Source of the DNA: Burkholderiales bacterium
GTDB lineage: Bacteria; Pseudomonadota; Gammaproteobacteria; Burkholderiales; SG8-39
Assembly: GCA_036259215.1 (NCBI GenBank)
Contig: DATACE010000235.1
Span: 1 to 31,037, forward strand
Direction of reading: 5' to 3'
DNA: 31,037 nt
Part shown: positions 14,374 to 20,344 of the stretch, in pieces
Layout: every line of letters starts with the position of its first letter
Position numbering within the stretch: the first letter of the stretch is position 1
Notes under the pieces: generated by a model
The model's input: the letters and a program-made list of their open reading frames with translations, nothing else
What the model was told of the DNA's origin: nothing
Databases searched by the model: none
Program-made: the position numbers and the translations under genes

Positions 14374-14610
14374 CTAGCCCGGGTATGGCTCGAACGTCAT
14401 TGCTTCGACCGGGAAGCCAAGCGCCTGGGCCAGCTTGTCCATCGCGTCGTCGGTGAGCTGCAGTGGCTGGAATTCCGCGTCGGCGCCCTTGGAAGTGATG
14501 AACGCCTTGGCCGCGTCCTCCGTATTCCATGTGACCACGGGATCGGGCGTCACGCCGGGTACCTGCCGGCAGATCGGAAAGCCATCGGACTTGTAGACGA
14601 TCGCGTACAT
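14374..14610 (-). CDS. Small acidic hypothetical protein (78 aa), divergent from rpfF
   Basis: Clean codon usage, AAGGGG SD before the ATG, protein-like composition; no family recognised. Confidence 0.7.
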   Translation of the reverse strand: MYAIVYKSDGFPICRQVPGVTPDPVVTWNTEDAAKAFITSKGADAEFQPLQLTDDAMDKLAQALGFPVEAMTFEPYPG

Positions 14611-14705
14611 GGAATCCCCTTGCCGGAGGAATTTACCCCATGTGGCGCTGCGGCAACAAGGCGAGCGGCACCCGGAAAAGGCACTTTCCTCAGGGACTCC
14701 CTGAT

Positions 14706-14721
14706 TGCCACATTAGTCACG
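14706..14721. promoter_or_regulatory. Possible CRP/Clp-family site in the rpfF upstream region
   Basis: TGCCA-N6-TCACG matches 7/10 positions of TGTGA-N6-TCACA; adjacent palindrome CAGGGA-C-TCCCTG at 14691-14703. Confidence 0.25.
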
Positions 14722-14833
14722 GCTCGATCTAATTCTTACGGGAGGTACCGGGACCGCCGCTCCCAACGCACGTCCCGGACCGAGGACCAGCCCCCCACCC
14801 ACGGGGCGAACCTTTCTGGGGAAGGAGCAACAC

Positions 14834-16689: not shown

Positions 16690-16700
16690 CCCAGAATAAG

Positions 16701-19244
16701 CTAACCGACGGACTTGCGCCTTTCCTGCAGATAGCGCTCAAGCTGCGTGCGCGCCGCGGCGAGCTCTTCGGCGAGCGAGCGCTGCAACGCGGGCGCCTGC
16801 AGGCGCAGCTCCGCGTCCGACATGCTGCCAAGGCTGGTGCACATACGGGTCAGCCGGTCGGTGCCCATGCTCGCCGACGAACCTTTCATCGCGTGCACCA
16901 GCGAGCGGAACTCGTGGTAGTCGCGGCCGGCGAGCACGCGCTCGATGCGGGCGAGAATCGCCGTATTGTCGCTGACGAAGACGCGGATCAGCTTCTCGAC
17001 GAAAGCGAGCGAGGAACCCAGTTCCTCGAGATGGCCGAGCGTCTCGGCATTGACCACCGCCGGCGCGGCCACGGACACCGGGCGGTGCAGCGGCGTCGGC
17101 GCTTCCGGCTTGCGCGGGGCCGACTCGCCTTTCGTGCCCGCGAGCGCCTGGATCTCGTCCAGCAGGCGCACCGTCTCTATGGGCTTGGAGAAAAAGGCAT
17201 CCGCCCCGGATTCGAGCGCCTCGCGCTTGGCCTCGGGCGTCACGTCCGCCGACAGCATGATCACCGGAAGCCGCTCCCGCCCGCGCGTCATCAGGCGCAG
17301 CGCCTGCAGTGCCTCCATGCCGCCCATGCCTGGCATGTTGCGGTCCAGGATGACGAGGTCGTAGGCATCGCGCTCCACTGCATCGAGCGCCTGCTCGCCG
17401 TCGTTTACCAGCGTAACCGCATGGCCGGCGCGCTCCAGGATCTTGCCGACCACCTCGCGATTGGTCGGGTTATCGTCGGCGACCAGCACACGCACTCGCA
17501 CCGAGCCCGCCCCGCGGCGCGCATAGTCCTGCAGCCGCACCACGCCTTCGGTGACTTCCTCCCCCGCCGTGACCGAGTGCAGCACGTTGAACAGCCGCCG
17601 CTTGTCGAACGGCAGCTCGAGCACCGAAGCAAAGCCCGACGACAGCACCTCGAAGCGGCGCACGTCGGCCTCGCGCGGCACGGCGAGAATGGTCGGCGGC
17701 GCCGGGTTCGGCGCGGCTCGGCGGAAGCGCTGCGCTAGCGTCAGGTCCTCGCCCGAGGCGTAAAGCAGCGCGCTATGGTAAGGCTGGGCGAGGCTGATCT
17801 CGGCGACCAGACGCGCGACGCCCTGCTCCACGCTCGCGGCGGCCACCGGCTGCGCCCCCCAGGTGGACAGCGCTTCCTCGACCGCGACGCGCTCCGCCGG
17901 AGGAAACCCGACCAGCAGCACGCGTGCGCCGGCGATCCTGCCGGCACCGGCGCCGGCACGCTCGGCCTGCTTCTCGAGATCCACCTCGAGCCAGAACGTG
18001 CTGCCCAGGCCGATGGCGCTCTCGACCCCGATGCGCCCGCCCATGAGCTGCACCAGCTGCTTTGCGATGGTAGTGCCCAGGCCCGTGCCGCCGAAGCGCC
18101 GCGTGGTGGACTCGTCGGCCTGCGTGAAGCTGTCGAAGATTTTCGCCTGCGCCTCGGGCGTGATGCCGATGCCGGTGTCGCGGATGGAGAACTTGAGGCG
18201 CACCATGGCATCGGTCTCCGCCTGCACCGTGACGTGCACCGTGACGCTGCCTTTTTCGGTGAACTTCACGGCGTTGCCGGCGAGGTTGATCAGCACCTGG
18301 CGCAGGTGGTGCGGGTCGCCGCGCACCGCCGGCGGCACCTCGGGCATGAGCGAAACCACGAAGTCGACGCCCTTTGCCGCAGCCTGGGCGGCCACGATGC
18401 GGCAGGTGCTGTTCACCAGCGCGTGCAGGTCGAAGTCCGCTTTCTCTAGCGTGACCTTGCCCGCCTCGATCTTGGAAAAATCGAGCACGTCCTCGATCAG
18501 CCCGAGCATCACGCGCGATGAGCTGCGCAGCGTCTGCAGCATGTCGGCCTGCTCCCGGCTGAGCGGCGTGTCGCGCAGCAGATCGGCCATGCCGATGATG
18601 GCGTTGAGCGGCGTGCGCATCTCGTGGCTCACCATCGAGATGAAGCGGCGCTTGGCCAAGTTGGCCGCCTCGGCGCGCGCCAGCGCGTCGAACATGCGCC
18701 GCACCAGCGACAGCACGTACAGGCTGACCGCTAACATGCCGAGCAGCAGGCCCACGCCGAGCGACAGGTGCGCGCGCCAGAAATCGTTGACGTACAAGGC
18801 AATGCCGAAGCCGACGACGCTCATCGCCAGCTCGGATACAAGGTACTTCGGGCCGAAGCGAAAGCCGCTGCCGAGCGTTACCCAGATATAGAGCAGGAAC
18901 AGCCAGCCGGCGGGCTCACCGAACACCGCCATGTACCAGGTGATGGCGGCGACGTCGGCGAACTGCGCGAATACGCGCCGGCCGGGCGAGATGACGGTCG
19001 AGTAGGCGATGCGCAGGAATATGATCAGCGCGAGCACCAAGTGGATGCCCATCACGTACAGCGGGAGCACGTCGTGCTGGGTGAGCGCGTCGGGCAACAG
19101 GTACAGGAACACGAGCGAGCTGATGATCAGGCGCAAAATGCCCTGCTCGTGCTCCGTGTCCGGCCGCGCCTTGAGGCGGGCGCGCAGGTCTGCGAGGAAG
19201 CCGCGGCGTGCGGCCACCGTTTCGGCGTTCGCCTGCTGCGCCAT
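16701..19244 (-). CDS. rpfC: RpfC-type hybrid sensor kinase (TM sensor-HisKA-HATPase-pseudoREC-REC-HPt), 847 aa
   Basis: N-terminal RPDTEHEQ before 5-6 hydrophobic segments; SHEMRTPLN (His at 18624-18626); [23 protein letters not shown]; [26 protein letters not shown]; HPt [14 protein letters not shown] at 19244 overlaps the rpfG stop (TGATG). Confidence 0.9.
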
Positions 19245-20344
19245 CAGCGTTCCGCGGCTCCGCTTTGCGGGTCGCGCCATTCCATCTGGATCTCGAGGAT
19301 TTCCTTTTGCAGCGCCCCGAACGCCTCGATAAGGCGCGGGTCGAAGTGCCGGCCGCGCTGCGCCATCAGGTACTCGAAAGCTTTCTCGCTCGCCCAGGCG
19401 GCCTTGTAGGGCCGGATGGACGTCAGCGCGTCGTAGACGTCGGCGACCGCGACGATGCGCGCGCACAGCGGAATGTGGTCCCCGACCAGCCCGTTGGGAT
19501 AGCCGGAGCCGTCGTACTTCTCGTGGTGGCCCAGGGCGATCAGCGCCCCCATGCGCACGTACTTCGAGGCGCTGCCCTTCAAAATCTCGTGGCCGATCAC
19601 CGGGTGGCGGCGCATCACCTGCCATTCCGCATCGTCCAGCTTCGAAGGCTTGAGCAGGATCTGGTCCGGGATGCCGATCTTGCCGATATCGTGCAGCGGG
19701 GCGGCGAGCTCGATGGTCTCGGCCTCGTCGCGCTCCAGCCCGATGGCGCTTGCGATGAGCCGGGAATAGCGCGACATCCGGATCAGGTGGTATCCGGTTT
19801 CCTCGTCGCGGAACTCTCCCGCGCGGGCCAGCCTCAGCAATGTCTCCTTCTCGCGCTCCCTCACCTCGCGCGTGGCATCCTCCACCATGTGCTCGAGCAG
19901 GCGGCGGCGGTCCTCCAGCGCGAGCTGCTGGCGGCGCAGGGTGAGCAGGTTGCGGCAGCGCGCAAGGCACTCGCGGGCATCGACCGGCTTGGTGAGGAAA
20001 TCGGTGATCCCTGCATCGAGCGCCGCATAGCGCACCTTGCGATCATCGTGCACCGTAACCATGACGATCGGCACGTGCTCGTAGCCCGGCAGGGCGCGCA
20101 GGCGCTTCACGAACTCGATGCCGTCCATGTCCGGCATCATGTAGTCGACCAGCACCAGATCGGAGACGTGCCGCGTAGCCCAGACCACCGCGTCCACCGG
20201 GCGGGCGAACCCCTCCACGGCGACCCGCTCGTCAAGGCTGCGCACGACCTGCTCGAGGATGGCGCGGCCGGTCGACTGATCGTCGACCACCATTACAGTA
20301 TTGCGCGCCGAAGGCAGGATCCGCACCTGCGCCTTGGCCATCAT
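19244..20344 (-). CDS. rpfG: REC-HD-GYP cyclic di-GMP phosphodiesterase response regulator
   Basis: REC VVDD..LVDYMMPDMDG..FLTKP; HD-GYP LHDIGKIGIPD, HHEKYDGSGYP, IVAVADVYDAL..RPYK; coupled to rpfC. Start MMAK at 20344 (ORF track 20359). Confidence 0.92.
   Translation of the reverse strand: MMAKAQVRILPSARNTVMVVDDQSTGRAILEQVVRSLDERVAVEGFARPVDAVVWATRHVSDLVLVDYMMPDMDGIEFVKRLRALPGYEHVPIVMVTVHDDRKVRYAALDAGITDFLTKPVDARECLARCRNLLTLRRQQLALEDRRRLLEHMVEDATREVREREKETLLRLARAGEFRDEETGYHLIRMSRYSRLIASAIGLERDEAETIELAAPLHDIGKIGIPDQILLKPSKLDDAEWQVMRRHPVIGHEILKGSASKYVRMGALIALGHHEKYDGSGYPNGLVGDHIPLCARIVAVADVYDALTSIRPYKAAWASEKAFEYLMAQRGRHFDPRLIEAFGALQKEILEIQMEWRDPQSGAAER

Follow-up and report, generated by a model that had tools for sequence, protein, structure and literature searches.

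Canonical diffusible signal factor (DSF) systems of Xanthomonas are encoded by the rpf cluster, in which the gene for an RpfF-family synthase is convergent on an rpfG-rpfC operon. RpfC is a kinase with several transmembrane segments and with HisKA, HATPase, receiver (REC) and histidine phosphotransfer (HPt) domains, and RpfG is a REC-HD-GYP response regulator. In these clusters rpfB adjoins rpfF, and rpfH is located between rpfG and rpfC. Clusters of rpfF, rpfG and rpfC have also been described outside the xanthomonads, in Methylophaga, Leptospirillum, Thiobacillus, Methylobacillus and Acidithiobacillus. These environmental bacteria share the three core genes, and rpfB is unlinked or absent (PMC4504480, PMC9040811). 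Burkholderia has an RpfF-family synthase with a different receptor: in its RpfF/RpfR system (Burkholderia DSF, BDSF), the receptor is a PAS-GGDEF-EAL protein. Here, we analyzed an rpf-like locus in a stretch of 31,037 nucleotides (nt) of contig DATACE010000235.1, which is called the window below. It belongs to a metagenome-assembled genome (MAG) from the same bacterial order as Burkholderia, the Burkholderiales.

The window locus was like the canonical Xanthomonas cluster in its convergent gene arrangement and in the domain order of both regulators. The two catalytic Glu residues and the residues of the phosphorelay were conserved as well. A canonical reference cluster, L164 (rpfB-rpfF><rpfC-rpfH-rpfG), was used for direct comparison. 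L164 comes from the sole genome, among 401 sampled across the class, above the cut-off of NF053515, the NCBIfam equivalog model of Xanthomonadaceae RpfF. However, the window cluster was without rpfB and rpfH, its RpfC had an added pseudo-receiver, and an alpha/beta hydrolase was encoded third in the operon. These results suggested that the locus very probably encodes a chromosomal circuit for DSF-family quorum sensing, of the RpfF/RpfC/RpfG type. The combined reading, a DSF-type circuit together with a hydrolase that acts on signal-related acyl esters or thioesters, is the one we favor, with a good deal of confidence but less than for the circuit itself. The core circuit is a further member of a known system. 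The accessory slot between rpfF and rpfC is a variant not found described in the literature searched on rpf clusters, where neither an accessory hydrolase nor a variable slot for lipid enzymes nor an RpfC pseudo-receiver was mentioned.

Organization and conservation of the locus

Gene content was surveyed from 13.5 to 21.6 kb of the window. The rpf features were as follows.

14834-15781, plus strand: rpfF-like gene of a DSF-family synthase (crotonase, 315 amino acids; Pfam ECH_1)
15787-16689, minus strand: alpha/beta hydrolase gene (300 amino acids from TTG; Pfam Hydrolase_4 and Abhydrolase_1), third gene of the rpfG-rpfC operon
16701-19244, minus strand: rpfC-like gene of a hybrid sensor kinase (847 amino acids; transmembrane region, HisKA, HATPase_c, extra domain, Response_reg and Hpt; Pfam)
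17559-17933, minus strand: degenerate (pseudo-)receiver inside RpfC, about residues 438-562 (hhalign)
19244-20359, minus strand: rpfG-like gene of a REC-HD-GYP response regulator (371 amino acids; Pfam Response_reg and HD_5)

The rpfF gene was convergent on the rpfG-rpfC-hydrolase unit (20359-15787, minus strand), and the whole set was located between panC and a tRNA-Leu gene. The start of rpfC shared one base with the stop of rpfG (TGATG). The TTG of the hydrolase gene followed the rpfC stop by 11 nt on the same strand; another gene caller placed the start at a GTG (16644, residue 16), which gave a gap of 56 nt. Only 5 nt separated the stops of rpfF and the hydrolase gene. The GC content of the locus was about 0.64-0.71 per kb, near that of the remaining window.

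The locus was found at the identical chromosomal site in 22 of the 24 genus genomes sampled and also in many genera of the family. The family-wide gene order was dNK-(panC)-ORF-rpfF><slot-rpfC-rpfG-queA-tgt, where ORF is an open reading frame of 78 codons and slot is the variable position. This meant that the arrangement was not due to chance. The circuit is read as vertically inherited within this family, whose members are uncultured Burkholderiales from soil. An earlier reading made from the sequence only had proposed a crotonase gene convergent on translationally coupled rpfG and rpfC genes between panC and tRNA-Leu, and this layout was confirmed by coordinates, residues and synteny. Three loci of relatives may have broken core genes, through either assembly error or decay. 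In L032 (13493-14576), rpfG was broken across two frames; in L036 (13280-13723), rpfG matched over its first ~150 residues only; and in L061 (6658-7916), rpfC matched as three separate pieces.

The crotonase is of the RpfF type

Searches against the PDB gave RpfF structures as the best matches of the window crotonase, with 164-187 bits, whereas other crotonases reached 65 bits at most. In the alignment with 3m6m, Glu149 and Glu169 corresponded to E141 and E161 of Xanthomonas campestris pv. campestris (Xcc), and G92 and G146 corresponded to G86 and G138. The roles of this catalytic Glu pair and of the two Gly residues in Xcc have been described (PMC9040811). Identity to the canonical Xanthomonas-type RpfF was 38% (tblastn). 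In the tree, 65 RpfF-like proteins including that of L164 formed one clade with the window RpfF inside it. Seven further crotonases of the MAG were separated from this clade with an SH-aLRT support of 100. The protein homologue search with RpfF gave close metagenomic relatives only, under the name 'DSF synthase', and there were no reference sequences among them.

The crotonase could instead be an ordinary enoyl-CoA hydratase beside an unrelated two-component system, since its score with NF053515 was 220 bits, under the cut-off of 550. However, this model is narrow: one of the 401 genomes passed it, compared with 64 that had an RpfF-family match. PRK08788 (NCBIfam, cut-off 177 bits) was passed by both the window protein (352 bits) and the canonical L164 RpfF (411 bits). 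The gap in bits between RpfF structures and other crotonases, the clade membership with full support and a partner kinase whose input domain was of the RpfC/RpfH type also stood against it. A hydratase is therefore very improbable, and at the level of sequence this explanation is refuted; the crotonase was of the RpfF type, as the sequence-only reading had claimed. Separately, two genomes of the family carried an RpfF homologue of 43% identity with one in-frame TGA (G463:C25:3801-4667 and G534:C3:574379-575245).

RpfC and RpfG as a probable phosphorelay of the Xanthomonas type

The phosphorelay residues of RpfC, H207, D634 and H784, were all present, and its hydrophobic segments fell within residues 35-185. 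When residues 1-190 were used as a tblastn query, the input domain (match 13-190) showed 35% identity to L164 RpfC with 90 bits, and 35% identity to L164 RpfH with 105 bits. In the case of RpfG, D72, HD at 223 and HHEKYDGSGYP at 278 were found, and the protein was 52% identical to that of L164. The MAG contained at least 14 ORFs for GGDEF proteins and 4 for HD-GYP proteins.

Hybrid kinases of the BarA/GacS/TorS type were compared as well. The BarA model aligned with RpfC residues 187-805 in one stretch, and the best stretch of the TorS model (185-561) reached into the HATPase-REC region as well. However, the window kinase was unlike these in that its input domain was of the RpfC/RpfH type and its gene was paired with rpfF and rpfG. 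A second hybrid kinase of the MAG (G000:C238:11715-13538) showed 36% identity to RpfC 195-805, including the pseudo-receiver region, and is probably of the BarA/GacS type.

No gene for a PAS-GGDEF-EAL receptor was found in the locus. Such a pairing does occur in the order, where RpfF of L049 is paired with a PAS-GGDEF-EAL protein, and this RpfF fell into a separate clade. The RpfF clade, the RpfC/RpfH-like input domain and the absence of an RpfR gene from the locus agreed with the claim of a Xanthomonas-type RpfC/RpfG circuit and not an RpfR type. In the L049 region (6415-11853), RpfF was followed by a MerR-HTH-PAS-GGDEF-EAL protein, which is RpfR-like with an added DNA-binding head, and was preceded by an acyltransferase/AMP-binding fusion protein.

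The extra domain of RpfC, at about residues 438-562, had no match in Pfam and PDB sequence searches and was identified only by profile-profile comparison. Against the REC domain of the same protein, hhalign gave a probability of 93.7% with an E-value of 1.9e-7 over 114 columns. It had G-F at the acidic pair, Y at the position of the phospho-Asp and L at that of the Lys. The domain is a degenerate, non-phosphorylatable receiver, for which a role in structure or regulation is probable. The distance between HATPase and REC was bimodal among RpfC proteins, ~170 or ~50 amino acids, and was 170 in the window RpfC compared with 47 in canonical L164. The long form was found in 18 of 20 rpfF-adjacent rpfC genes sampled across the class (L164-L183), while the short form was found in L164, in L165 from the same family as L164 and in one soil betaproteobacterial clade. 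Thus, the short textbook architecture of Xanthomonas RpfC is the minority form. The sequence-only reading had listed the added RpfC domain as a non-canonical feature. The domain is present, but it belongs to the majority form outside the Xanthomonadaceae. A literature search gave no paper that held both 'RpfC' and 'pseudo-receiver'.

By homology to the characterized systems, RpfF would convert 3-hydroxyacyl-ACP to a cis-2-unsaturated fatty acid, which would be sensed by the multi-transmembrane input domain of RpfC. Phosphate would then be passed from H207 to D634 and H784 of RpfC and to D72 of RpfG, whose HD-GYP domain would lower cyclic di-GMP (c-di-GMP). The genes of the circuit do not in themselves imply secretion or dependence on density, and a broad thioesterase activity has also been described for RpfF enzymes (PMC4504480). 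Both points would fit a circuit in which the RpfF product is not a density signal and RpfC/RpfG is a sensor of lipid or membrane stress. However, synthase, sensor and regulator stayed together over many genera, as in characterized signaling systems. We consider such a stress sensor improbable, and a signaling circuit is preferred.

The accessory hydrolase

The Ser-Asp-His triad of the hydrolase (S123-D241-H279) was invariant in 48 homologues, and the nucleophile elbow was A-H-S-F-A. The AlphaFold2 model had a pLDDT of 95.5. Its best fold matches were monoacylglycerol lipases, acid lipases, lysophospholipase L2 and AidA, with TM-scores of 0.61-0.70. The capped alpha/beta fold and the triad were shared with Hydrolase_4 proteins and monoacylglycerol lipases such as Rv0183 of M. 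tuberculosis and human MGL. However, identity to these lipases was only 15-17%. NCBIfam and the Atlas gave generic names only.

At 43% identity or more, all homologues found were in rpf clusters except L067 (53%). Two gene orders were observed in soil betaproteobacteria, either rpfF><hyd-rpfC-rpfG, where hyd is the hydrolase gene, or rpfF><rpfC, hyd, rpfG. In the tree of the hydrolase, rpf-linked and unlinked copies were on opposite sides of one branch. The contexts of the unlinked paralogues were inconsistent between species. In S. stutzeri, the paralogue adjoined a two-component pair. In P. putida (L108:5675-8858), it came immediately behind the genes for a LysR regulator and for a FabV-like trans-2-enoyl-CoA reductase, a context that again points to enoyl fatty-acid metabolism. 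In one genus (L201:8224-9087), the hydrolase gene was on the other side of rpfF, with the 78-aa ORF as its second neighbor, and rpfF and rpfC faced each other directly.

The hydrolase gene would be co-transcribed with the sensing arm, and its product would be an enzyme of the cytoplasm with a Ser-Asp-His triad and a fold like that of lipases. Its substrate may be the signal, or a fatty-acyl by-product, in ester or thioester form, and cleavage would contribute to release, recycling or turnover. This role is tentative, and we hold it at somewhat below even chances. The added hydrolase was nevertheless a real accessory gene, as proposed before, and was located in a variable slot that holds lipid-oxidizing enzymes in relatives.

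The fold match to AidA, a quorum-quenching protein, also raised the idea that the hydrolase quenches foreign signals, as an alpha/beta hydrolase under DSF control that resembles lactonases of N-acyl homoserine lactones (AHL). A weak and partial match to the NCBIfam UilS lactonase model (E-value 1.2e-4, 22 bits, where the cut-off is 400) pointed in the same direction. However, this match spanned 57 residues only, monoacylglycerol and acid lipases were better fold matches, and the N-terminus in the translation was unlike a signal peptide. A quenching role is thus even less probable than the stress sensor discussed above.

Besides the NF053515 score of RpfF, several results weighed against the combined reading of a DSF-type circuit with a hydrolase acting on signal-related acyl groups. 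Fold matches at TM-scores of 0.6-0.7 leave the substrate of the hydrolase unfixed. A hydrolase would not act on the free fatty acid itself, so the reading has to assume an intermediate in which the acid is bound as an ester or thioester. Paralogues at ~40% identity in Pseudomonas, Collimonas and Rhizobium were not rpf-linked, and the branch that divided linked from unlinked copies was weak, with a support of 41. The hydrolase gene was beside rpfF in only ~7 of the 71 RpfF-positive genomes of the family, which meant that the hydrolase is dispensable for signaling. In addition, no RNA runs containing the locus sequence were listed.

Variable slot between rpfF and rpfC

A census of the slot was made in 20 family loci that were not picked by slot content. 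A 223-aa Haem_oxygenas_2 protein was encoded in 17 of them and a fatty-acid hydroxylase in 4. The hydrolase was present in 3 of the 20, and in one of these three it was upstream of rpfF, outside the slot. The heme-oxygenase-like protein was the commonest slot gene in the family. Among the loci of relatives, single ones also had a desaturase or a P450. Examples of the slot genes of relatives are listed below.

L036, 10003-10671, minus strand: heme-oxygenase-like di-iron protein
L044, 8882-9778, plus strand: FA_desaturase protein
L052, 1607-2950, plus strand: cytochrome P450
L059, 8910-9848, minus strand: FA_hydroxylase protein

The heme-oxygenase-like protein had conserved Glu/His/Asp positions, and its fold matched 3dde, CADD and the fatty-acid decarboxylase UndA with TM-scores of 0.76-0.83. 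UndA acts on fatty acids. No homologues of the heme-oxygenase-like, desaturase and P450 slot proteins were found elsewhere in the 79%-complete MAG.

In the tree of RpfF, RpfC and RpfG combined, the basal clade had both hydrolase and oxidase, intermediate lineages had the oxidase only, and a clade of 16 members including the window had the hydrolase only. Swapping of slot genes was considered and was dropped on the basis of this tree for differential loss from a richer ancestor.

The RpfC sensor evolved faster than the core everywhere. In the loci bearing the heme-oxygenase-like gene, sensor identity was 53% at a core identity of 70%. Between the hydrolase-only clade and these loci it was 47%, which was only slightly more diverged. 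Because this difference rests on one branch, it gives only a hint that sensor divergence tracks slot content.

The variability of the slot bears on whether its genes belong to the circuit. The locus could be a plain DSF circuit, with the hydrolase and the other slot genes as unrelated passengers at a recombination-prone gap between convergent units. Variable content that follows phylogeny as differential loss would be expected of passengers, and the hydrolase was missing from most family loci. Moreover, L047 and L048, which belong to different families of the order, had no slot gene, and rpfC directly faced rpfF there; relatives without rpfF had other DNA between the 78-aa ORF and queA. However, all slot genes that were identified belonged to lipid or fatty-acid enzyme classes. 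The linkage of the hydrolase to rpf was kept in a second gene order in other soil betaproteobacterial lineages, and the hydrolase gene was close behind rpfC on the same strand, at either start. We therefore regard passengers as rather unlikely, and the hydrolase is preferably read as an accessory of the circuit.

Since the slot holds lipid-oxidizing enzymes in relatives, the suggestion of the sequence-only reading that the system has a different signal or turnover route is plausible from the gene content. A further step would be to regard the slot as signal-tailoring. Its esterase, heme-oxygenase-like di-iron oxidase, membrane hydroxylase, desaturase and P450 would alter the RpfF product, set it free or break it down, and sister lineages of one abundant soil family would speak different fatty-acid 'dialects', with RpfC sensors diverging to match. 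The clade of the window would have moved from an oxidase-type to a hydrolase-only route. This proposal is speculative, and we consider it doubtful.

Flanking genes and unlinked components

The genes on both sides of the rpf set were as follows.

13563-14363, plus strand: panC, a conserved flank that is syntenic in relatives (Pfam Pantoate_ligase, 314 bits)
14374-14610, minus strand: 78-aa ORF, divergent from rpfF, without a Pfam match
20446-20532, minus strand: tRNA-Leu(CAA), the locus boundary (ARAGORN; Rfam tRNA, 57 bits)
20565-21563, plus strand: queA

An Rfam scan of the locus gave the tRNA only, and a scan of the locus for promoters and terminators gave none above shuffled expectation. 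Near-identical DNA was present in soil, sediment and cave metagenomes.

The 78-aa ORF was 70-87% identical in all genus loci. It had no match in Pfam, and the Atlas gave 'hypothetical protein' with a weak DUF3110 lead. This divergent orphan had been proposed as part of the system variant. However, among the 121 family genomes, 85 had the ORF and 71 had RpfF. By genus, the ORF was present in 5/5 genomes of g341 and 3/3 of g350, compared with 0/5 and 0/3 for RpfF, and it adjoined panC or dNK even where rpf genes were missing altogether. Its persistence in genera without an RpfF match spoke against a system component, and it is probably just a neighbor of the rpf locus. Three loci with no RpfF match (L207, L212 and L214) kept dNK-panC, the 78-aa ORF and queA-tgt, with 3-6.6 kb of other DNA between the ORF and queA.

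Neither rpfB nor rpfH was found in the window. The source MAG is 3.0 Mb in size, and an RpfB/FadD homologue, 59% identical to L164 RpfB, was encoded on another of its contigs (C116). The absence of both genes from the cluster, as claimed before, was confirmed. The view of it as a non-canonical trait was not supported, as clusters without linked rpfB or rpfH are a described variation (PMC4504480).

Significance for the family

Nearly all studies of DSF signaling have dealt with pathogens of plants and humans, where the variety of signals is attributed to the acyl-ACP substrate. To our knowledge, no dedicated DSF tailoring enzymes are known, and literature searches also found none. The present results showed that an abundant uncultured soil family keeps the circuit at a fixed site and varies the lipid enzymes encoded between synthase and sensor. 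If the slot enzymes act on the signal, the family would be a natural system for the diversification of fatty-acid signals and their receptors. In that case, new molecules of the DSF type or enzymes that degrade signals would be available from this family as well.

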